Source of the DNA: an uncultured virus (IMG/VR IMGVR_UViG_3300025327_000016)
Lineage: Duplodnaviria > Heunggongvirae > Uroviricota > Caudoviricetes
DNA: 64,000 nt
Virus record (IMG/VR): IMGVR_UViG_3300025327_000016
Location: 1 to 64,000 of that record
Strand: one strand, 5' to 3'
Shown here: positions 1-46,900 of the stretch, in pieces
Position numbering within the stretch: position 1 is the first letter of the stretch
Layout of the letters: every line of letters starts with the position of its first letter
Made by a program: the position numbers and the translations under genes
Notes under the pieces: model-generated
What the model was told of the DNA's origin: nothing
The model's database searches: none
Seen by the model: only the letters and a program-made list of their open reading frames with translations

Positions 1-640
1 AGCATTACTAACAGCACGACGAACAGCATTACCAATAGCACCACCAACAGCATCACCAACAGTACTATCAACAACATCACTAACAACATCACTAACAGCA
101 CCACGAACAGCATTATCAACAGCATTACGAACAGCTCTACGAACAGCATCATCAACAGCTATCCCAACAGCATTAAAAACAGCACTACCAACAGCATTAT
201 CAACAGCACTACCAACAGCCCTACCAACAGCATTACCAACAGCATTAAAAACAGCACTACCAACAGCATTATCAACAGCTATCCCAACAGCACTACTAAC
301 AGCATTATCAACAGCATTACCAACAGCATTACCAACAGCATCACCAACAGTACTACTAACAGCATCATCAACAGCTATCCCAACAGCATTACCAACAGCA
401 TTACTAACAGCACGACGAACAGCATTACCAATAGCACCACCAACAGCATCACCAACAGTACTATCAACAACATCACTAACAACATCACTAACAGCACCAC
501 GAACAGCATTATCAACAGCATTATCAACAGCATTACGAACAGCTCTACGAACAGCATTATCAACAGCTATCCCAACAGCACTACTAACAGCATCATCAAC
601 AGCACTACCAACAGCACTACTAACAGCATCATCAACAGCA
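1..640. repeat. ~50 tandem copies of a 12-bp unit AACAGCNNNNNN, with a higher-order duplication (1-127 = 397-523)
   Basis: Read directly from sequence. Confidence 0.95.
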
Positions 641-708
641 CTATAATACACAATACCTAATTCGTCTGTTCCTGAACCCGTAGGCCCCTTATATGGTTCA
701 GATAGCAT
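1..708 (-). CDS. Tetrapeptide-repeat (xxAV) protein, 3' end runs off the window; not in the ORF track
   Basis: SD AAGGAGGTG 7 nt before ATG at 708; reads MLSEPYKGPTGSGTDELGIVYYSAVDDAVSSAVGSAVDDAV... with no stop to base 1. Confidence 0.8.
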   Translation of the reverse strand, partial: MLSEPYKGPTGSGTDELGIVYYSAVDDAVSSAVGSAVDDAVSSAVGIAVDNAVRRAVRNAVDNAVDNAVRGAVSDVVSDVVDSTVGDAVGGAIGNAVRRAVSNAVGNAVGIAVDDAVSSTVGDAVGNAVGNAVDNAVSSAVGIAVDNAVGSAVFNAVGNAVGRAVGSAVDNAVGSAVFNAVGIAVDDAVRRAVRNAVDNAVRGAVSDVVSDVVDSTVGDAVGGAIGNAVRRAVSNA

Positions 709-2386: not shown

Positions 2387-2426
2387 GATTTAACCTCCTA
2401 TTCTTCCGTTAACAGCACCATCAACA

Positions 2427-2463
2427 GTAGAAAAATGAGACCTGATTAATAAGGGATTGAAAC
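2427..2463 (+). CRISPR. Solitary CRISPR-repeat-like unit 1 (not an array)
   Basis: GTAGAAAAATGAGACCTGATTAATAAGGGATTGAAAC, 37 bp, starts GT and ends ATTGAAAC, intergenic. Confidence 0.75.
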
Positions 2464-2468
2464 TTAAT

Positions 2469-2651
2469 TTATTCATTGATACCCTTCCCTTCTTTTTCAG
2501 AAATGTTTATAGACGAGAGAACTGGAGATATTGAAGAAGATTCAAATACTCTATCAGAGTATTCAAGAGCAATACTTTCTGCAGATGAAAAATTATTTGC
2601 TTTTACCGTAAATGTTACAGGATAAACTATTGTAACTTCATATAAATTCAT
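2469..2651 (-). CDS. Hypothetical protein (60 aa, MNLYEVTIVYP...)
   Basis: Internal ATG of the tracked 127 aa ORF avoids overlap with the upstream gene. Confidence 0.55.
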   Translation of the reverse strand: MNLYEVTIVYPVTFTVKANNFSSAESIALEYSDRVFESSSISPVLSSINISEKEGKGINE

Positions 2652-2881: not shown

Positions 2882-3259
2882 CTACACCTCCCTAAATTGA
2901 ATAAATTTAAAGATGGCGGTCTTTTCGACCGTACCATCCGTCAATATTTTCTCTACCGCCTCGCGGCGGGAGGTAGATACTACTACTTTATACCCTAACT
3001 CTTTACACATATGAGTTAAAGTATAAAATAACGATTGTTCCCCCATTACATGGAGGATTACTTGAGAGGGGGATAACCCCTTAATATCAAGGATCTCTCC
3101 TATCTGATACATCATATCCATAGCTAACTTACTAATCCCCTCCTTGTCTAAGGAGGGGTCAACTTGCGGAAACGGCATATCTAATATATCCCCTTTTACC
3201 CCTTCTCTTTGTTCTATTGACCATTTCCCATATGGGTGGTTGCTGATATTAATAAACAT
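2882..3259 (-). CDS. Csx20/Csx15-like CARF-related protein, putative cyclic-oligoadenylate ring nuclease
   Basis: Start reassigned to MFINISNHP (SD GAAAGGAAG); motifs NxSNHP..W..EQ, D.PFP.VDP, HVMGE, STS.R, F.F.QFRE recalled from CRISPR-associated Csx20-like proteins. Confidence 0.7.
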   Translation of the reverse strand: MFINISNHPYGKWSIEQREGVKGDILDMPFPQVDPSLDKEGISKLAMDMMYQIGEILDIKGLSPSQVILHVMGEQSLFYTLTHMCKELGYKVVVSTSRREAVEKILTDGTVEKTAIFKFIQFREV

Positions 3260-3453
3260 ATTTACACTTCCTTTCTTTATCCATAATATCCACCTAAACA
3301 ATACAAACTTAGGTGGTCTTACCAAGATACATAACAGGATGCTTGCACACCGTATGCAAAACACCCTGTCATCCACAGACTTATCTTCCCCACGAACAGA
3401 AAAGGGCAGGTGGTAGATATCCTACCCGCCCACTCTCATCTTCCGTAGAAAAA

Positions 3454-3490
3454 GTAGAAAAATGAGACCTGATCAGTAAGGGATTGAAAC
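3454..3490 (+). CRISPR. Solitary CRISPR-repeat-like unit 2 (not an array)
   Basis: GTAGAAAAATGAGACCTGATCAGTAAGGGATTGAAAC, 35/37 identical to unit 1, intergenic. Confidence 0.75.
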
Positions 3491-3521
3491 TTTACGCCTT
3501 CTTTCTTTTTTTTTTTGAATT

Positions 3522-3551
3522 AAAAAAAGCCGAGGGCTAATGCCCTCGGCT
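3522..3551 (-). terminator. Intrinsic terminator
   Basis: 10-bp stem AGCCGAGGGC/GCCCTCGGCT followed by a T run on the - strand. Confidence 0.75.
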
Positions 3552-3560
3552 AAATCAAGC

Positions 3561-3926
3561 CTAGAAACTAGGCTTGATTTTTCCAGGAGCCTTTTTAGGC
3601 TCCTGGAGGAGCTCACTCACGCGAGCTCCTCCGTACCGTCCAAACTGGACGGTGTAGAGTTTGAACTCTTCACCGTCCTTTATTGTAATCCACGGGGACG
3701 GGTTCCCCGTGTCCCTGGGACCAAGTCCGATCCCAGTCCAGACGCACGCATCTGGGCTGAGATCAAAGATCTCAGCCAGCTCTCCTGTAATAATTACAGG
3801 AGAGCTTACGCTCCCTTTCTCAGCATTAAATCTTTCTATTAGCTCGCCCAAAGGGCGAGCCAATAAACCCTTAGCGAGCCCGATAAGGCTCGCTTCTTTT
3901 TTCCCTTTAACTTCTATAAAGCTCAT
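3561..3926 (-). CDS. Hypothetical protein (hairpin-tiled CDS)
   Basis: 121 aa ORF, SD AAGGAGGT, terminator downstream. Confidence 0.7.
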   Translation of the reverse strand: MSFIEVKGKKEASLIGLAKGLLARPLGELIERFNAEKGSVSSPVIITGELAEIFDLSPDACVWTGIGLGPRDTGNPSPWITIKDGEEFKLYTVQFGRYGGARVSELLQEPKKAPGKIKPSF

Positions 3927-3929
3927 TTT

Positions 3930-4101
3930 TTTACCTCCTTTTGGCAGCAGCTAGATGCCTGCTGCCTTGGATATTGTAGGTGCACATGGGGCAGACAAGG
4001 AACTGAATTGTCAAGATACGCTGTTTGTCTTGACAATGTCTGCCCCATGTGCTTTGCTTTTTAAGGCAGCAGGCAGCTGCTGACTAAAAGAAAGAGGTAA
4101 A
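3930..4101 (-). promoter_or_regulatory. Long nested stem-loop whose base pairs with the SD of the 3561-3926 gene
   Basis: Nested inverted repeats 3930-3937/4094-4101, GCCTGCTGCCTT/AAGGCAGCAGGC, 3982-3997/4037-4052, 4007-4016/4028-4037. Confidence 0.6.
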
Positions 4102-4803
4102 GAGATGAGGAGAAGTAAGGGGAAGAAAGAGGCATGAGACAGAGGGAAGCTAAAGAGGGGGGCTCGAGGAGGCGAGTTGATGGTGGCACCTCCCCTCCCT
4201 CTTTTAGGTGTTGTAGCTGGAGAGCAGAGGGGGTTTAGCCCCTCTGGTCGGGACACTATTATTACAACATCAAGGTTAGTGGGGGGGAATAGTATCCTCA
4301 TGTATAGGCTATCAACTTATACTATAAGGTTAAGTTGGATAGGGAAGAGGGGCCGAAGGCCCCTGATGGGAGCACTAAGAGGTTCTTTAAGGGTTATATA
4401 TGAGGCATAAAATAACTCCCTATATAAGCCTTGAAAGAAAACCCTGGATTAAAGCCATTTGTTTTTGAGAGATGAGTACCAATAAGGTGGTTTTTAAGAA
4501 TGGCTCTACCATTGACTTGAGACTACCTCAGCTACAGGGAACGACATCTAAAGGACAGGCAAAAAATGGCTCTGCTACGTGGTCAAAAACTGGCGTGGCT
4601 ATTGGATGTGGTTTTTCAAACGGATGTTGTATTATCAACGTTGGGCGCCGAAGGCGTAGTAGATAAGGGTAGGTTGGAATAGGAATAGACAAGGGGAGCC
4701 GAAGGCTTGAGGTAAGAGGAAGTAGGGAGGGGGGTGCGAAGCACCCCTGTTGGGAGGAAAAAGGGGAGCGGTAGAGCTAAACAAGCCTCTACCGCTCCGA
4801 AGA

Positions 4804-4983
4804 CTACGAGTAATCCTCGTAGTCGTCTTCCAGGGGGCAGGCTATTACCCACCCCCAATCGTATGCACAATCAACGCATACGCCCATCTCCTGACAAGAT
4901 GTCAGGAGACCTACTTCTCCACATACAGTGCAGAAGTCTATATCATCAACTTCCACCATAGAAGTTGATGATAATATTCTCAT
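4804..4983 (-). CDS. Small Cys-rich protein (59 aa); not in the ORF track
   Basis: SD GAAAGGAGGTG; MRILSSTSMVEVDDIDFCTVCGEVGLLTSCQEMGVCVDCAYDW... Confidence 0.65.
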   Translation of the reverse strand: MRILSSTSMVEVDDIDFCTVCGEVGLLTSCQEMGVCVDCAYDWGWVIACPLEDDYEDYS

Positions 4984-4999
4984 ATTTCACCTCCTTTCT

Positions 5000-5218
5000 T
5001 TAGTTGTTTGTTGAGACGTGACTTAGATACCATATCCAGTCACATCTTATTAGGGCTCCATCATACAATCTGGGCAAATAAAGTGCCCAGATTGCTTTCA
5101 GGATACAACCCTTTATTACTTCAGGGTTGTATCCTAGATCACTAACCCATTCTGGGTTAGTGATAAACATCATTCGTGCGCTGTACTGACAGCGCACGAA
5201 CTTAAACAAGTATTCCAT
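5000..5218 (-). CDS. Hypothetical protein
   Basis: 72 aa, SD AAAGGAGG. Confidence 0.65.
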   Translation of the reverse strand: MEYLFKFVRCQYSARMMFITNPEWVSDLGYNPEVIKGCILKAIWALYLPRLYDGALIRCDWIWYLSHVSTNN

Positions 5219-5246
5219 TAATATCCCTCCTTTCTAATCTAGCAAG

Positions 5247-5450
5247 CTACCGCTTGCTGCATATATCAACAACAAACCCTGCTCCTCCTAATAGGAGGAG
5301 TACTACAAGCACTCCTCCCAACCATGGGAGCAGCACACAAGCTGCTCCCACCAACCCCACCCATAAGAGGGTGGTACCAATTAGGTTGTCCTTCTTTCGA
5401 AGGAACCAACCTAGTACTGCTATAAAAATACAAATTAACAACCTTAACAT
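5247..5450 (-). CDS. Small membrane protein, resembles 2144-2386
   Basis: Hydrophobic 67 aa, SD GAGGTG. Confidence 0.65.
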   Translation of the reverse strand: MLRLLICIFIAVLGWFLRKKDNLIGTTLLWVGLVGAACVLLPWLGGVLVVLLLLGGAGFVVDICSKR

Positions 5451-5520
5451 ATTTACTCACCTCTCTTTCTCGTGACCATTATTTAACGAGGCGGTCACTA
5501 CCTCGTAAGCTCAGTCCTAA

Positions 5521-5685
5521 CTATCCCTCCTTTCGCGCGATGTACTCATCGTACATCGCGTTGATATCCTCGTCCGTAAGAACGAGGTCTTCCGACCAGG
5601 ACTCATAGTCCTGGTCTACCTGCTGGAGGCAGCCCCAGCAAGGGGCTGCCTCCAGGTACAACTCATCAATCAGGTCCCTGATCAT
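5521..5685 (-). CDS. Small acidic protein (54 aa, MIRDLIDELY...)
   Basis: SD AAAGGAGGTG before ATG at 5685. Confidence 0.65.
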   Translation of the reverse strand: MIRDLIDELYLEAAPCWGCLQQVDQDYESWSEDLVLTDEDINAMYDEYIARKEG

Positions 5686-5849
5686 TTGCTCACCTCCTTT
5701 CGAAGGCGAACAGCTTCTGAAAGCTGCTCGCGATGATATCGCGAGCGTAACTCCCAGACATACTCTGGGAGCTTGTCCAAAAGCCCCCAGACTAACTCGG
5801 GTTCCCAACCCGAGTATCTCTTTTCGATCCAACTTTCAAAACTCATCAT
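5682..5849 (-). CDS. Hypothetical protein (MMSFESWIEKRY...)
   Basis: ATGA overlap with the next gene; SD-like GTAGGT. Confidence 0.55.
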   Translation of the reverse strand: MMSFESWIEKRYSGWEPELVWGLLDKLPEYVWELRSRYHREQLSEAVRLRKEVSK

Positions 5850-5906
5850 ATAATACCTACTTTCTGCCGCTGTTAAGCGGCGTAATGTCACCCACTTGGT
5901 GGGTGC

Positions 5907-5946
5907 AAAAAAGGGGAAGGGAGAGCTTGTAAGCTCTCCCTTCCCC
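5907..5946 (-). terminator. Intrinsic terminator
   Basis: 15-bp stem GGGGAAGGGAGAGCT/AGCTCTCCCTTCCCC plus T6 on the - strand. Confidence 0.75.
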
Positions 5947-5956
5947 CCAACTTACT

Positions 5957-6193
5957 TTACTCAGAGACCTCGGCGTAGAATGCGCCGAGATCCTCCTTCC
6001 CCTTTATTACAACATTAACGCACTGGCCGAGGTTACTGTGAATGTAAAAACTCGTGCATTCAATCTTTTCAGCTGCGCACGCTGCGCAGCTGGACGGGTA
6101 GGCATAGCCTACCCATCCAGTGAACCCCGCGGGCGGGTTCTGACACCATTCCATGATGGCGTCGTAAAGCTCTCTACCTTTACAAATACTCAT
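5957..6193 (-). CDS. Hypothetical protein
   Basis: 78 aa, SD GAAAGGAG. Confidence 0.65.
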   Translation of the reverse strand: MSICKGRELYDAIMEWCQNPPAGFTGWVGYAYPSSCAACAAEKIECTSFYIHSNLGQCVNVVIKGKEDLGAFYAEVSE

Positions 6194-6313
6194 ATTATAC
6201 TCCTTTCATCTACAGCCTGCCTCACGGTCAGGTCTTACATAGACCTCATCATCGGTGTCGCAAGCCACCTCCCACCTACACCCCGTGGTTGGGGTTAAGC
6301 CCGCAACCATAGA

Positions 6314-6388
6314 TTACTCTATGGTTGCGAACTCAGCGTTCAGTATCGCCCAACAATAGGCGACACAAATCCAAAGTTCAAATATCAT
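6314..6388 (-). CDS. Putative 24 aa hydrophobic peptide MIFELWICVAYCWAILNAEFATIE
   Basis: Strong SD GAAAGGAGGTG with the same leader as the 4983 gene. Confidence 0.4.
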   Translation of the reverse strand: MIFELWICVAYCWAILNAEFATIE

Positions 6389-6718
6389 ATATTTCACCTC
6401 CTTTCAGCCACATAGTTCACAGGGGGGGGTGGGGCACCAAACGATAAATCCCCTGTGATATTATCTGCATTACCACCCACACACACATACACTCACCCTA
6501 ACGGGGTTACCTGCTCGCACCACAAGCAAATAAATGAGCCTAGAACACATCGTAGGGGAAGGGGTGGGTACTGGAAGCTAGGGGTAATTACCCCTAGCTT
6601 TAAGAAGCCTTCTAAAATTTTTAGTGGAACCTTCTCTTATTTAGCTTTCGCCAGGGCTTTAACAGCTTTTATATCTAACAAGAGGTATATATCATGAATA
6701 TTCCAAGAAATAGTAACC

Positions 6719-7009
6719 TTGCTTGAAAGATGGTGTTGTTATAACGGACAACTTATTCTCAATGAATCTATTGACGATGGTTTCCCCGAATTAACAAAAG
6801 AGATATGGATGTGCAGAGGAAACATTAGATTAGCTAAGATAGAGTATCCCCCAATATACAACAGGGAAGGTATTGCCTTCCCCCGTAACTTAAGTGGTGA
6901 TCAAATACTGGCTTCGATCCAAAAGGTATATTACCCTAACAAGTTAGGGTGGGGAGATATAACAACTGATGTCCAAGGGAGTACACCTGATGATAGTACC
7001 AAACATTAG
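6719..7009 (+). CDS. Hypothetical protein, possibly frameshifted from ATG at 6694
   Basis: ORF; the SD-supported ATG at 6694 is one base out of frame. Confidence 0.45.
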   Translation: MLERWCCYNGQLILNESIDDGFPELTKEIWMCRGNIRLAKIEYPPIYNREGIAFPRNLSGDQILASIQKVYYPNKLGWGDITTDVQGSTPDDSTKH

Positions 7010-7229
7010 AAGTAATAAATATAATGATTTACCTAATAAGGTATCGCCGTTCCTAACGGCGGTGGATAAGGTATTTATTACCGAAGGTAGATTTGAAGTA
7101 GGTAGCATAAATAATCCTATTAGGCACATCTTTGATACCAGTAATGATGCTGTAGCTTACGCTGAGAAATTTCAACCAGGTACGATGACTATTCTAGATC
7201 GATGGACAAATAGTTCTTGGATAGTATAA
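6969..7229 (+). CDS. Hypothetical protein
   Basis: 86 aa ORF coupled to neighbours. Confidence 0.55.
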   Translation: MSKGVHLMIVPNIRSNKYNDLPNKVSPFLTAVDKVFITEGRFEVGSINNPIRHIFDTSNDAVAYAEKFQPGTMTILDRWTNSSWIV

Positions 7230-7483
7230 CCTATGTATGTATTATCATCTCAGATGGGCCTAAAACACATGAGTTAGAGGTGACAGGTATCTTAGACCAA
7301 CTTGGAGTAACTTCTGCGCTATATGACCAATTAGAGCTGTTTCCTGAGGCATATACAGGAGACCACATCCTAGACGATTCGATGATCGGAAAATGGAAAG
7401 CAGAAAGAGGTATTAGATCTATACCCCTTAAGAAAGGATCTAGCAAACAAACTATTGCAGATAACATTACTGAGTTAAGCTGA
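7217..7483 (+). CDS. Hypothetical protein reading into a PLKKG-type remnant
   Basis: 88 aa ORF, TTG start. Confidence 0.45.
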   Translation: MDSITYVCIIISDGPKTHELEVTGILDQLGVTSALYDQLELFPEAYTGDHILDDSMIGKWKAERGIRSIPLKKGSSKQTIADNITELS

Positions 7484-7613
7484 GTTAATTAGATCAGGTA
7501 AAAGCAAAGTTCAAGCGGTAGCCATGGATAAAGCTGGTAAGGGTAATAAGCGTAAGCGGGAAGAACATATTCCTCAAGTTAATACCTCACCCATGGATTT
7601 ATGGCATTCCTGA
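7421..7613 (+). pseudogene. Disrupted small basic phage protein (MPLKKG..K..I..NI.ELI.SG....QAVA type)
   Basis: ATA in place of ATG after AAAGAGG; 10-bp imperfect duplication 7471-7490 shifts the frame. Confidence 0.6.
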
Positions 7614-7617
7614 TCAC

Positions 7618-7648
7618 TTGACAAAAAGATCAATATATGTTATATATT
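7618..7648 (+). promoter_or_regulatory. Sigma70/sigmaA-like promoter upstream of the packaging operon
   Basis: TTGACA, 17 bp, TATATA with a TG extension (TATATT at 19 bp). Confidence 0.5.
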
Positions 7649-7875
7649 AATTCTTTTATATAATATATATAACATCACTGTCAGTAATATTATAATACAG
7701 AGAACTACTAAAAGTAGTTCTCTTATAAGATATTACTGTATGTAATATTACATACAGAGATCTCTGTCAGTAATAAGCAATCCATTAAGGTTGCGGAAAA
7801 ACCATATACAGTATATAATTAGTTAGCACCTAATAACCTATGGATCTAATGCATCAATTAAACGGAGATATTGTA

Positions 7876-8977: not shown

Positions 8978-9370
8978 ATGCCAAGTTTATTGGGTTCATT
9001 ATTAAAAGGTGTATGGAGCACTACTAAGTTTGGGGCTCGTACAGGATGGGGTATTACTAGGGGTGTAACAGGAGCTGTGTTTAACAGGGGAACCCTACAA
9101 ACAGGTATGGGTTTAGCTCAAGGAGCTTGGAGCTTAGGTAAATTTGCCCATAAGTATCAAGCACCTATTGGTTTTGGAATAGCAGCAGGAGCTTTTGCTT
9201 TTGGTGCTATGAACTATCCTAGTGTGGATCCTAAACAGTACGCCGAGGTGCGAGGACATTCTCCTATGCAACGTTTCCAAGCAAGTGCTCAAGGAGATCT
9301 TGTTTTTGGTTTAAATAAAACACCAGATGTTAATATATCTCCAATGGCGGCTGCTTATATGTTTCTTTAG
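8978..9370 (+). CDS. Gly-rich protein with a hydrophobic segment
   Basis: ORF in operon. Confidence 0.65.
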   Translation: MPSLLGSLLKGVWSTTKFGARTGWGITRGVTGAVFNRGTLQTGMGLAQGAWSLGKFAHKYQAPIGFGIAAGAFAFGAMNYPSVDPKQYAEVRGHSPMQRFQASAQGDLVFGLNKTPDVNISPMAAAYMFL

Positions 9371-9394
9371 AAGGTTATTTAGAGGATTCGATCT

Positions 9395-9868
9395 ATGTCT
9401 TTAATTTCAAGTATAGCAAAGCATTTTAAAGCTAAATGGTTGCCAGCAACTGCTGTTGGTATTGGTGGGGTTATGGAGTATCGCTCTCACTTGGGAGAGC
9501 GTGATAAACCCGTTACAGCAGCTCTTAAAACAATAGGTTCCCAAGCCTTATGGTATCTTTACCCAGCCGCTATGACAGCAATTCACGCCGCTCCTTTCTT
9601 ATCAGCTGCAGGCACAGCTATGGAAGCCAACAGGCGACAAGCTGCAGGCACTATGATGTTTGGTGCCCAAACCTTTGGACCTAGAGATGTATTAGATAAT
9701 GCCTATTTGGCTACTAATAGAGCAAGAGCTCTTACAGCTATAAATCAATCTAAGCTAAATGCTCGTAATATTATCGGCCAAGAAGCCGCCCTTATGTCAG
9801 CAAGATATTCAGGAGCAGGTTCTATTGGTGGTGCTGGTTATAATTCTTTTTATGGAGCATCTTATTAA
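9395..9868 (+). CDS. Ala/Gly-rich hypothetical protein
   Basis: ORF with SD GAGGA immediately before terL. Confidence 0.65.
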   Translation: MSLISSIAKHFKAKWLPATAVGIGGVMEYRSHLGERDKPVTAALKTIGSQALWYLYPAAMTAIHAAPFLSAAGTAMEANRRQAAGTMMFGAQTFGPRDVLDNAYLATNRARALTAINQSKLNARNIIGQEAALMSARYSGAGSIGGAGYNSFYGASY

Positions 9869-9873
9869 TTTAT

Positions 9874-11589
9874 ATGGGTATAGATATAACTCGTTTTACT
9901 CCAGAACAACGCAGTAGGTATATAGAAGTTCTTAAGACCTTTCCTCTCTTCGCAAAAGAATTTTTCGATAAAACTCTTCGTGATTGGCAACAAACAGTTG
10001 TTGCAACAAATGCTAAACGTTTTGCGTTACGCGTAGCACGTCGTGGTGGTAAAACCGAATTAGTATGTATGATGGTTTTATGGTTATGTTTTACTAATGG
10101 TAAGGTCATAGATCCTACCCGCAAGCAACGATACAAAGTTATTGTGATGGCTCCACTAGAAACCCATCTTAATGATATTTATCAGAATATGCTAACACTC
10201 ATAAATACCTCTAAAGATTTTCAAGAGAGTATAGAGAAGCCCGCTAAAGCACCTGCATTTTTGCGTTTTAAAAACGGTGCTGTTATACAATTCTTAACAG
10301 CAGGTACCAAGTCGGGAATGGCAGCCATGGGTATTCGTGGTAAGTGGGGTGATTTAATATGGGTAGAAGAAGCAGACTATTGTACGGATGATGACATGAC
10401 ATCAGCTTTAGCTATCTTGGGTCAATCAGATGACATTAGGTTTATAATGACATCTACTCCATCAGGTAAAAGAGGTATATACTACGAGACATGTGTTGAT
10501 CCAGAACCCAGAGGCTTCAAATCATTTCACTATAATTGCTGGGAAGCAATACCAGATTGGAATGAAGAACGTGATAGGCAGATACGTATGCTCATTGGGC
10601 CAGTTAGGTATGAACATGAACAACTAGCTGATTTTGGTTCTGAATCATTTGCGGTATTTAAGAAAGAAAAAATAGATACTGCTAAAAATCGCGATACACC
10701 ATGGTATACTCATTCTCCCAAATCTCATCCTAATTATGGGTATCTTATGTCTAAGCTTTATAGCAAAGAACATCCTATCGTAATAGGAGTAGATTGGGAT
10801 AAGTATCATGCTGCTACTCAGATAGTTGTTGTGCAGTTTGAAAGATATGATGATAAAGACTATTATATGCGCGTAATAGCAAGACATGAAATACCAATAG
10901 GAGAATATACCCTACATAACGCTACTAAGAAAATAGTTATGCTTAATGATTTCTATCAACCAGATTATATCTATTGTGATCGTGGTTATGGAGAAGGTCA
11001 GATAGAAAACTTAAAAGTAGTTGGTTTGGAGAATCCAGAAACCAAACTTCACGATAAAGTAATTGGTGTACATTTTGGACAGTCAGTAGATATTCTAGAT
11101 CCGCATACTAGGGTAAGATCATCAACGCCAATCAAACCACTAATGGTAAATAGATTAACTCAGATGTTTGATGACGAAGTACTTATACTAAGTCCTCATG
11201 ATCACTTCATGACCCTAGAGTTAAACGAATATCGAGTTAAGCGTATGAGCCAAAATGGACAACCCATTTTCTCTTCTAAGAACGAACATGCCATAGACGC
11301 TCTTATGTTAGCAGTATATGGTATTACCGAACACTTTTTAAATATGGGCAAGGTAGAATCTTATGCTGAGATGCAGCCTATTAGCAATATCTTAAAGCGC
11401 GTACCTGAAAACAAAACCTCACCATTACAAAAACGCAACACCAATATAGATTATGAGCCCCCTCCGCCTGGGTTTATACCATCCAATCAGTATGGATTGC
11501 GAGGAGGGGGATTCGACAGCTTTAATCCTACAGTATCTAGATTTGGTGGTTCAGGTATAAGACGTAGAAGTTTTACGCGAGGTAGCTAA
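9874..11589 (+). CDS. terL: Terminase large subunit
   Basis: Walker A RVARRGGKT, Walker B LIWVEEAD, coupling motif TSTP, nuclease IGVDWD and HAIDAL. Confidence 0.92.
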   Translation: MGIDITRFTPEQRSRYIEVLKTFPLFAKEFFDKTLRDWQQTVVATNAKRFALRVARRGGKTELVCMMVLWLCFTNGKVIDPTRKQRYKVIVMAPLETHLNDIYQNMLTLINTSKDFQESIEKPAKAPAFLRFKNGAVIQFLTAGTKSGMAAMGIRGKWGDLIWVEEADYCTDDDMTSALAILGQSDDIRFIMTSTPSGKRGIYYETCVDPEPRGFKSFHYNCWEAIPDWNEERDRQIRMLIGPVRYEHEQLADFGSESFAVFKKEKIDTAKNRDTPWYTHSPKSHPNYGYLMSKLYSKEHPIVIGVDWDKYHAATQIVVVQFERYDDKDYYMRVIARHEIPIGEYTLHNATKKIVMLNDFYQPDYIYCDRGYGEGQIENLKVVGLENPETKLHDKVIGVHFGQSVDILDPHTRVRSSTPIKPLMVNRLTQMFDDEVLILSPHDHFMTLELNEYRVKRMSQNGQPIFSSKNEHAIDALMLAVYGITEHFLNMGKVESYAEMQPISNILKRVPENKTSPLQKRNTNIDYEPPPPGFIPSNQYGLRGGGFDSFNPTVSRFGGSGIRRRSFTRGS

Positions 11590-43963: not shown

Positions 43964-46900
43964 ATGGCATTTGGACCCTTTCCAATTAATCACGGAGAAG
44001 AGAGCGCAAGAGAATCTCTTCACATAGCTAGGTCAGTTAGTAATCCTGCGTGGAGCGAGCATCTTCACAACCAAACCACTAGATCTAGTAATCTTATACT
44101 AGATCCATTTACAGGAGAGAATATTCTTATTGCTCCTCTTACTAATCAGACCTACACAACACACAAAGAAATCCAACGAGCACTATCTACCTCATTAAGC
44201 ACACCATCCTATTTTGGACAGTATCTCCATACACCACATAATGTAAGCATTAGATCTAAGATCAGTAAAATGATTAGTTTGGGTCATATAGGTGGTACAG
44301 GTGGTCCACAATTACCAACTATTAGATTTACCGCTTCTGCTTATCACGAAGGATTAACTGGTCTTCCTGTAAAGACATCACTACCAACTATTATACCTCC
44401 TTCTGGTTCTTGGCAAACACAGCTAGAAAACATGACTAGAACTGAAAAATGGAAGCTATGGCAAGACGTAACAGGTGCAATGCCTAGTGGAGGATATACA
44501 CTAGATCAAATTAAACAACTTCAGGCAAATCTTTTTCACCGAGAATTATCTGTTCAGGAATTCTTGCAAGCATATCAACAAATAGAAAAGACATCTACCA
44601 AAGATGTAGTCATAAAAACTAAGCAATTACTTAAGGCTTCTTTTGGTGCTAATATATCCTTACCTAATACTATCAAAGATATATATACTATGGAACAACA
44701 TATCTTTGAGAAAATCTTACCCTCTTTTGGAGAAGAAGTACAGGAAACTCTTAAGGGGTACCGTACAGTAGTGACTGGTTCTAGTAAGGCGCGTATGGCC
44801 TGGGAGATACACGAGCGTCCTCTTAAGATGATGGGTTCGTGGTTAGCTCAGTTTACATCTTCTCCTAAGGTAGATCGTAACTTATTGGCTCAAACAAGTA
44901 ATATAATAGAAGCTGGTGCAAAAAGAGATTTAACACAAGAATTGGCTTCTGCTAATGTGATGTCTCGTGAAAAGATGGAGGCAATGGATGTCTTACGACC
45001 CCTTTCTCAACGAGAAAGGGAAATACAATCTGGTATGGGAACAGTTTTTCAGTTTAGTCCTAAGTCCATATCTCCTCTTGCAGAAACAGCCCTACCCACA
45101 CAACTATCAGAAGCTGATGTATTTGGAACAGCATTCGAGTCCTACATGCGTCAGACACACCCACAAGCAATATATTCCTATCAGAAATTTAGACACTCTG
45201 AAGACATATTAAAACTAGTTAAGGGTCATACTGCTGAGGTTGCGGAGTTTGATGAATTTCGTAAAGTAATACAGAAAATTGCAACTCGTGCTGCTACGCA
45301 AGCACCAGGATATAGATCTAAAGCATATCTCAAGCTAGCAAAATCTACTACATTAGATTTTGCTCAACAAATGGCAGCATGGCAGGATTATATAAGATCT
45401 GGTATGTCAGAAATAGAAACAGTATCTGAGTTTGGTGCTAAAGCATCGCAAGCATCTAAAGAGTTAGCCAACATAGAGCAACTAATACAACAACATCGCG
45501 AAGCTGGTGAGCTATATGGCACACCTAAAATGCAAGCTCTTTTTGAACAGCGTGAAGATATAGCTAAGCAATTTGTAGGGCATGAGAGAATATTAGCTAG
45601 TGGTAAATCACCCAAAGACATTGTAAATTTACCCAGTCAACCTACAAACCCTCTTGAATCCTATGCTAAACCTTTTGTTGGGCCAATGCCTCAACAAGTA
45701 TTACAGCCTAAGTCAGTTCAATACAAGCGTATTACTACAGCTAAGGGGTTACAAGAATTCCTTAAGAGTCTACCATCATCTGGTCATATTGCATTAGATA
45801 CAGAAACAACAGCATTTTCTGAAGCAATAGAGAGAGTTAGATTGCTTCAGCTTTCAGCTGAGGGCGGACCTGTTGGTATTGTAGATCTCCTTAAACTACC
45901 TAAAAAGGGTAGATCTATTTTAACTGAGTTCCTCGCTAGTTCTAGACCTAAAATAATACAAAATGCTCCATTTGATATCAAAGCTTTATTAGGCGAAGGA
46001 TATAAAATCGGTGGGCAGATATACGATCCTATGGTGGCAGAGCAGGTTCTTAGTCAAACTAAGTATGGTAAATCTAACCTAGGATATCTTGCGTCTAAAT
46101 ATTTAAACATTTCCTTGCCTAAAGAAGCACAAAAATCTAAGTGGGGTGGTAGGCTATCAAAACAACGATACCAGTATGCAGCCAGAGACGTAGCCGTACT
46201 ACATGATATAATGAGTGCTCAGTCTGCAGCATTTGAACAGGTGGGTATAGAGCAATACAATATAGCTGCGAAGCAGATGACTAGTATACAGCAAAGAGCT
46301 AGAGAAAAGTTTATTACAACAACACATCTAAAATCTACAATAAAATCCACAACACCAATAATACCAACACCAACAGTAGCACCATCAGCACGACGAACAG
46401 CACCATCAACAGCATTACCAACAGCATTATCAACAGCACTACGAACAGCATTACCAACAGCACCATCAACAGCACCAATAATACCAACAACACCAATAAC
46501 AACAACACCAATAACAGCAATACCAACAGGTCCTCAAGCTACTGCAATACCTTCACCGTCTAGAGCCCAGAATATTATGGACGTTCTTACGAGTGAGCCA
46601 GGTCGTAGAAAGATCTTATCGGCAGGTGCTTCACTTGAAGCAGGTCCATGGGCAGCCATACCTGAGAAGTCTGCAGAACTTATGCGCCAGAATCAAGAGA
46701 AGCTATATGCTCTTAGTCGTGGAGTAGGATACTATGCTAAAGTAAAACCCCTTGGGGAAACTGGAGGTATGCATGAGTTAATCCTACAGTCTATGGAAAC
46801 CCACGGAGCTAAGTTTAAAATGGTAGGTACAGCAGAAGAGCTAAATGAGAAACTGCGTTCTGCTCAAGCCCAGGCATTTGTAGAAGGTATAGCTCCTGAA

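Follow-up and report, generated by a model that had tools for sequence, protein, structure and literature searches.

Why does a phage carry two copies of a type III-family CRISPR repeat on either side of a gene for a CRISPR ring-nuclease homolog, on the strand opposite to the surrounding genes? The window analyzed here, 64,000 nucleotides in full, stands at the start of a 99,839-nt virus contig, and sister contigs of 161 kb (G001, IMG/VR) and 181 kb (metagenome) are 99.9% identical to that contig over the stretches compared, so that the phage genome is estimated at ~180 kb. The phage encodes a terminase, portal, capsid, baseplate J, DNA polymerase III alpha, RecA and a Rad52-family protein, and no integrase was detected among the 84 phage proteins scanned, a part of the proteome that leaves ~13 kb of the genome unseen. 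Its nearest cultured terminase is that of Moorella phage MTATph1 (36%), a distance too great for host assignment. Its host-like genes (L034-L036) comprise peptide deformylase, ClpP, an RF-1 domain, a class II tRNA-synthetase-like protein, ThiF, GNAT, RNA ligase, Dam and two DNA polymerase III alpha ORFs.

From position 1 to ~6200 the ORFs are small, and those with the strongest ribosome-binding sites lie nearly all on the minus strand; plus-strand operons start near 6700-7840. Judging by gene size and position only, the stretch from 1 to ~6200 is probably the early region. Between 2600 and 6600 it has unusually many short perfect inverted repeats, and its GC content is 43-52% in 3500-6500 compared with 38%. 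A palindrome of ~30 nt at 4008-4037 recurs near position 8640 of L024, each time upstream of a minus-strand gene, and could be an operator or promoter element. No Rfam family matched at gathering score anywhere in the 64-kb window.

Repeat 1 (2427-2463, plus strand) is a solitary 37-nt repeat that matches all family-invariant positions and ends in ATTGAAAC, its 3' 8 nt (2456-2463, plus) forming the would-be crRNA tag. Repeat 2 (3454-3490, plus) is identical to it at 35/37 positions and has an intact tag; the two changes, T21C and A23G, both fall in the loop, and A23 is invariant in 41/41 distinct family copies, so that repeat 2 has lost an invariant base while repeat 1 keeps every one. The copies are spaced 1027 nt from start to start, with a 990-nt gap containing three ORFs. 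A 27-nt core is matched twice in the window versus 0 in 100 shuffles, whereas the bare 8-mer ATTGAAAC is no commoner than chance (3 found, mean 2.65). In the 99,839-nt contig no third copy exceeded 23/37, and no further copy was found in what the 161-kb sister adds to it; the two copies, the sole ones in the ~167 kb examined, both flank csx20, within 194 and 418 nt. The sequence-only reading had placed the repeats on the plus strand against minus-strand neighbors, with the stop codon of a 60-aa ORF 5 nt from repeat 1, and both statements hold, the first by the strands of the ORFs and the second by the gap at 2464-2468. A contig from run X16 matches only the 3' end of repeat 2 (at window position 3475), with other letters before it, and may represent another repeat variant from the same habitat.

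By the description of lone viral repeats termed SRUs, no other repeat should lie within 100 nt, the repeat should be intergenic and near an anti-CRISPR gene, and it should share at least 90% identity with an array repeat. Here the next full copy is 990 nt away, with a 9-nt partial copy abutting repeat 2; the repeats are intergenic and near an anti-CRISPR-type gene, with a possible 28-aa ORF spanning repeat 1; and the best array match seen is 31/37 (84%), the cognate host array not being among those found. A CRISPR mini-array, with two repeats one spacer apart, does not describe the locus, since 990 nt and three ORFs separate the copies.

The family pattern, …GACCTGAT-N4-AAGGGATTG(A/C)(A/G)AC, has a core that is common to repeats of real arrays beside cas10/csm genes, which bears out the earlier assignment to type III. 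Relaxed patterns recovered host arrays at up to 31/37 identity, and these are neighbored by cas6, cas10, csm3, csm4 and csx1 in one case (L028) and by III-F-like genes in two others (L011, L033). That the true repeat orientation might be the minus strand had been named as a way for the sequence-only reading to fail, and the comparison with host arrays settles it: the crRNA strand in this phage is the plus strand. Host arrays have their conserved leader on the 5' side of the ATTG(A/C)(A/G)AC end and the degenerate repeats of the trailer on its 3' side; cas6/cas10/csm or cas1 genes are co-oriented with the arrays in L028, L011, L033, L022 and L032; and the Thermus thermophilus repeat, as given in PMC12396201, ends in a similar way at its 3' side. 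Among 191 unique family-array spacers read in the tag-end orientation, 132 are pyrimidine-rich (mRNA-antisense) and 54 purine-rich (p=1e-8, with 104 of the repeats in this set coming from a single array), and ribosome-binding-site motifs in these spacers are antisense in 14 cases and sense in 4; an earlier test with n=63 had given 36:24 (p=0.16, not significant). The Rfam model CRISPR-DR8 matches the opposite strand below threshold, and does not settle the strand because the same sub-threshold match occurs in phage repeats and host arrays alike.

Mini-arrays are interleaved among host type III cas genes at L028:5687-7505 and in L021 and L033, and in L028 and L021 csx1 lies between repeats like a 1.28-kb giant spacer. 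Solitary family repeats also occur in bacterial chromosomes (L007:7989, L009, L012:7989 and L013:200) in mixed orientation to their neighbors, where they could be regulatory crRNA-like elements. In the search for a host, the exact 31-nt repeat pattern returned 0 matches in GTDB and the relaxed pattern 9 loci, none identical to the phage repeat. A metagenome scan gave 14 loci, of which 5 are this phage and 9 are arrays or cas loci at no more than 31/37. Phylum samples screened for the repeat within 3 mismatches gave 0/31, 1/401 and 0/401 (1/833 genomes), and none of the 191 spacers matched the phage over its full length.

Between the two repeats lies csx20 (2882-3259, minus), whose 125-aa product is a CRISPR ring-nuclease homolog. 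The PADLOC Csx20 profile covers residues 1-124, its full length, at E=1.8e-22; NCBIfam NF040559 matches at E=4.3e-10 with 40 bits, below the equivalog cut-off of 70 bits. All 9 invariant residues (N4, H8, W13, Q17, P31, R99, F117, F119 and R123) are present, as judged from 101 rows gathered with this query. The predicted structure has a pLDDT of 97.7, and its top fold matches are SAVED-CHAT (Z 8.0, rmsd 2.8, 101 aligned) and Cap5 (Z 7.1), a Z near 8 possibly meaning only a common arrangement. By family membership, the protein most likely cuts cA4 and would be the main anti-CRISPR of the locus: degradation of cA4 has been shown for another Csx20, a gene reported in 5 of 28,114 phages (10.1101/2024.09.24.614671), and csx20 is also described in acr-type operons (PMC13551039). 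No csx20 match was found in INPHARED phages, viral scans with P0002 and the two neighboring ORFs returned this phage alone, and none of the 6 other viral csx20 loci had a recognizable repeat. One relative encodes a Csx20 that is 74% identical (P0154). In a 150-kb virus contig (L051, at 508-984, 1914-2390 and 2456-2869), csx20 is preceded by two duplicated cassettes, and the 158-aa protein encoded in each begins much like Csx20.

The remaining cassette genes are small. A 73-aa acidic ORF (2656-2877, minus) has no Pfam, PADLOC or NCBIfam match of note and ESM Atlas leads below 0.9, and the 60-aa ORF (2469-2651, minus) likewise falls in no family; its nearest ESM Atlas clusters are small viral hypothetical proteins, with scores of 0.83-0.89 that serve as leads only, alongside a weak DpnD/PcfM-like lead. 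Beyond repeat 1, an 80-aa hydrophobic ORF (2144-2386, minus) has its ribosome-binding site just downstream of anti-repeat 1. A putative 28-aa ORF (2390-2476, minus), possibly coupled in translation, would run through anti-repeat 1 and through a tandem-repeat fragment in that fragment's native frame. Upstream of csx20 is a 194-nt non-coding leader (3260-3453, minus) with three predicted hairpins, in which a promoter scan identified no csx20 promoter.

Would the repeats be transcribed, and from which strand? Anti-repeat 1 lies in an 82-nt intergenic gap in which no terminator was called, so that it is probably carried on the operon mRNA. Anti-repeat 2 lies ~30 nt downstream of an intrinsic terminator (3528-3551, minus), a 10-bp hairpin with a U-tract that follows a 121-aa ORF (3926-3561). 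The tract counts 7 in the window and only 5 in 7/7 sister loci compared, so that the terminator may leak. The claim that the mRNA carries anti-repeats thus fits repeat 1 and is not clear for repeat 2. On the plus strand, no promoter signal exceeded chance (22 sites versus 19.7 +/- 4.4 in shuffles). A search for RNA runs that contain the locus listed none, which speaks neither for nor against transcription. In predicted folds of the mRNA the mean unpaired fraction is 0.48 for anti-repeat 1, which is about half paired in cis, and 0.32 for anti-repeat 2, and the short stem of the repeat itself has a predicted probability of at most 0.02 in its sequence context. Cas6 is able to shape its own substrate. 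The core of repeat 1 can also form a local hairpin with the 3' end of the 60-aa gene, which is likely to be chance.

The sequences flanking the repeats bear on their origin. Family spacers measure 34-46 nt. The would-be spacer or protospacer after repeat 1 (2464-2500, plus) covers, in antisense, the 3' end of the 60-aa ORF as well as the ribosome-binding site and start of the possible 28-aa ORF, and no other target was found for it (next best 24/35). On the other side, a 17-nt piece abutting repeat 1 (2410-2426, plus) matches the phage's own 12-nt tandem-repeat genes, at 16/16 to positions 46396 and 46456 and at 16/17 to positions 357, 585 and 621. With the tandem regions set aside, no other site on either strand of the 99.8 kb reaches 18/20, a pattern noticed first and tested afterwards. 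Relative to the mRNA of those tandem-repeat genes that lie on the minus strand the piece is antisense, and its exact matches are in a plus-strand gene; it is possibly a remnant of a preceding spacer, or else of an interrupted tandem-repeat gene. The 12-nt tandem repeats code for Ala-Val-X-X units and occur at window positions 1-708 (minus), L024:7752-8621 and 9316-10593, and window positions 46345-46529; they are found in a 289-aa ORF made almost wholly of units, in a DUF6745 protein (Pfam E=8.8e-31) and, coded on the opposite strand, inside a 1242-aa gene with a 3'-5' exonuclease domain.

An 8-mer at 2402-2409 (plus) recurs at 3439-3446, upstream of both repeats, a coincidence seen by chance in 67/3000 random pairs of 40-mers. 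Directly before repeat 2, a 9-nt tandem duplication (3445-3453, plus) copies the first 9 nt of that repeat. Together, the shared 8-mer, the 9-nt duplication and the 17-nt piece look like recombination scars. Repeat 2 is followed by a U-rich stretch (3491-3527, plus) that fills the 37 nt, a spacer length, between its tag and the terminator hairpin, and for which no target was found (best other match 23/35). A relative with 82% identical csx20 DNA and the same gene order has no piece matching repeat 1, its alignment joining 2349 to 2949 in one contig of one run, with the sequence between not known; this absence is a weak hint that csx20 arrived before the repeat. No joint that removes the csx20 cassette was seen in 4 DNA runs, as assembled contigs at low depth. 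A relative has short non-coding blocks in common with the window near 4293-4323, 4490-4529 and 6366-6445.

Family repeats are also found in other viruses. Two broader IMG/VR scans gave four unrelated viruses with one match each (L055, L056, L061 and L062), all antisense to their own operons, so that with this phage the count is 5/5 viruses (p=0.06, two-sided), or 4/4 (p=0.125) without the doubtful L061, whose match lies inside a 590-aa gene, has a poor 5' half and may be chance. Three of the four other-virus matches are in ORFs, a caveat to this bias, given that an antisense repeat has 2.6 open frames versus 1.2. Small ORFs read in frame through the anti-repeat in L055 (2489-2525) and L056 (2501-2537), and in L062 the repeat (2488-2524) lies 14 nt after a stop, truncating a coding remnant; the interruption or truncation of frames in these three viruses is scar-like. 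A search for csx20 in the virus records of L055 and L056 gave 0 candidates and is uninformative.

For the origin and function of the repeats, we infer, at a probability of roughly 0.4, that the locus is an anti-type-III CRISPR patch among small, probably early phage genes, with Csx20 as its main anti-CRISPR and with repeats taken over from a type III array of the host when a spacer recombined with its own protospacer. A crossover inside the spacer would leave the phage with the protospacer and the adjoining repeat, and capture would force the repeat to lie against the genes because protective type III spacers are antisense to phage mRNA; such spacers are described as complementary to early phage transcripts (PMC7515739), and recombination of spacers with phage genomes is stated in 10.1101/2020.10.09.333658, citing Varble 2019. 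The anti-tag would then adjoin the old protospacer and flank the target RNA on its 3' side, and the acting molecule would be the minus-strand mRNA with anti-repeat 1. The matching crRNA of the host would still bind and cut this mRNA, while pairing with the tag would stop Cas10 from making its alarm. The protecting guide may be the host's own crRNA and the orientation of the repeat a by-product of capture, so that neither a phage-made guide nor a plus-strand promoter would be required. Repeat 2 would probably be a duplicate from cassette shuffling that is now drifting.

Capture ranks first as the one account from which the orientation, the junctions and the phage-derived piece all follow, and as one that calls for no unseen promoter. 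It is favored by the orientation of the 191 host spacers, by the antisense placement in all five viruses and the scar-like cases among them, by the 17-nt piece, which is what a preceding spacer should look like, and by the RecA and Rad52-family proteins that the phage encodes. It is weakened in several respects: no host array with the exact repeat and no spacer matching the phage was found in the searches; 8 nt of anti-tag would suffice for the shield, yet neither repeat is shortened; repeat 2 implies as its protospacer a poly-A stretch past the terminator, an unlikely target; the virus sample is small and its in-ORF cases carry the open-frame bias; the 17-nt piece could be the rest of an interrupted tandem-repeat gene and has its exact matches in a plus-strand gene; and the two repeats lie close to csx20, a position suggestive of selection for an RNA that acts in trans.

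In two rival explanations the repeats act as RNA. A decoy of the Racr type, made from a cryptic plus-strand promoter and cut by host Cas6, would fill Csm/Cmr complexes with a tag and a targetless tail; the repeats retain their full length and tags, repeat 2 suits this best with its tag, 37-nt U-rich targetless tail and hairpin, and validated Racrs act in this way, solitary repeats clustering with acr genes according to PMC10651486. We nevertheless consider it unlikely, given the lack of a plus promoter above chance, the altered invariant loop base of repeat 2 and, as a weak point in light of Cas6, the low stem probability, and also the fact that the one acr-linked Racr described in PMC10651486 is co-transcribed with its acr, while these repeats oppose csx20. 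The minus-strand mRNA might instead pair in trans with every host pre-crRNA repeat, a pairing that the sequence-only reading had raised, and block maturation by Cas6. Such a sponge would account for the full length of the repeats, the cross-virus antisense bias and the place in an early operon with csx20, but its anti-repeats are partly paired in cis and the second lies past the terminator, complexes already loaded with crRNA would stay untouched, and our literature searches surfaced no precedent, so that we rate it as rather improbable. A broader statement, that viruses facing type III recurrently keep an antisense host repeat in their operons, as an anti-tag 'self' mark or as a block on crRNA maturation in trans, is tentative and well short of an even bet; if true, it would describe an RNA counter-defense acting by complementarity rather than crRNA mimicry, layered in this phage with the Csx20 ring nuclease.

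The repeats may also be inert with respect to CRISPR, that is, neutral scars or joints whose direct repeats serve to shuffle the 1027-nt csx20 cassette. The scar-like junctions with their duplication, shared 8-mer and truncated frames speak for it, as do the relative without a piece at repeat 1, in its one contig, and the absence of recognizable repeats from the six other viral csx20 loci. It is hard to reconcile with two sole copies in ~167 kb flanking the one known anti-type-III gene, with all invariant bases kept in repeat 1, and with the absence of a cassette-removing joint from the low-depth contigs of the four runs, and we hold it to be similarly improbable. The sequence-only reading had proposed a tag-protected self-guide; in the form weighed here, a phage crRNA from repeat 1 would direct host Csm against the operon of the phage itself and act as a switch that senses CRISPR. 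The premise of that reading that tag:anti-tag pairing blocks Cas10 activation agrees with 10.1101/369744, according to which RNA with a protospacer and a 3' anti-tag triggers no immunity yet is still cut by Csm3, and guide 1 does match the mRNA perfectly with a full anti-tag. The geometry is right, but it is automatic for any repeat with antisense transcription, and tag protection is no evidence of design; since Csm3 still cleaves anti-tag RNA, a guide 1 made by the phage would lead to cleavage of its own operon and remove the stop of the 60-aa gene, guide 2 is almost without a target, and an unseen plus promoter is required, which leaves the proposal very improbable. Least probable of all, and only slightly so in our estimate, are an attachment site for integration into a host array and a repeat-csx20-repeat block lifted whole from a cas locus. 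Phage integration in repeats is known (10.1101/2020.10.09.333658) and csx1 lies between repeats in two family hosts, but the 84 proteins scanned include no integrase, host csx1 is co-oriented with its repeats while phage csx20 is opposed, and the other two cassette genes are not cas-like.

If capture is the right account, a phage that gains an anti-tag through recombination with the spacer directed against it would escape by another route, in which the target sequence is kept: type III tolerates mismatches, and the phage escape known so far proceeds by deletion (PMC7515739) or through proteins, ring nucleases among them. Type III solitary repeats should then lie antisense to viral genes and be followed by known protospacers, and type I repeats should not. 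The cross-virus antisense bias and the clue of a spacer remnant are the parts worth following, and even with inert repeats the locus is a clear new phage csx20 locus. A literature search by title and start of abstract, with subscription papers mostly outside its reach, returned no paper on natural antisense type III repeats in phages.

Among known systems, the nearest are the SRUs and Racrs of Camara-Wilpert et al. 2023 (PMC10651486), likewise lone viral repeats that are intergenic and less than 1 kb from an anti-CRISPR-type gene. The Racrs tested in that study are I-C, I-E, I-F and V-A, none of them type III, although type III solitary repeats are catalogued there ('III-A' has 74 occurrences in supplementary file 3), and RacrIC1 is co-transcribed with its acr, whereas the two copies in this phage face against the operon, one on each side of the gene. 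The phage's contigs and repeat have 0 matches in that supplement, and by their solitary, intergenic position near an acr-type gene the repeats are Racr candidates, not members. Viral mini-arrays and crRNA-like RNAs (10.1101/2023.03.03.530964; 10.1101/2024.10.29.618823) are also repeat-derived phage elements near acr genes, and the cases covered in the review PMC11656645 and the mini-array study, as far as their accessible text goes, are sense-acting; unlike them, the present repeats are separated by 990 nt rather than by the length of a spacer, and no target in a cas promoter was found for them. The phage protein resembles published Csx20 (10.1101/2024.09.24.614671; PMC13551039) as a full-length homolog with all invariant residues and a function like that of AcrIII-1; it differs in falling below the NCBIfam cut-off and in being known from sequence, and a link to solitary repeats is absent from the available text of those accounts. 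Type III tag:anti-tag discrimination (10.1101/369744), in which RNA with a protospacer and a 3' anti-tag is cut while immunity is not triggered, is what the favored capture would exploit; in the text available, that work concerns the host's antisense array RNA and engineered targets, and the locus described here would carry the same principle into natural phage escape.
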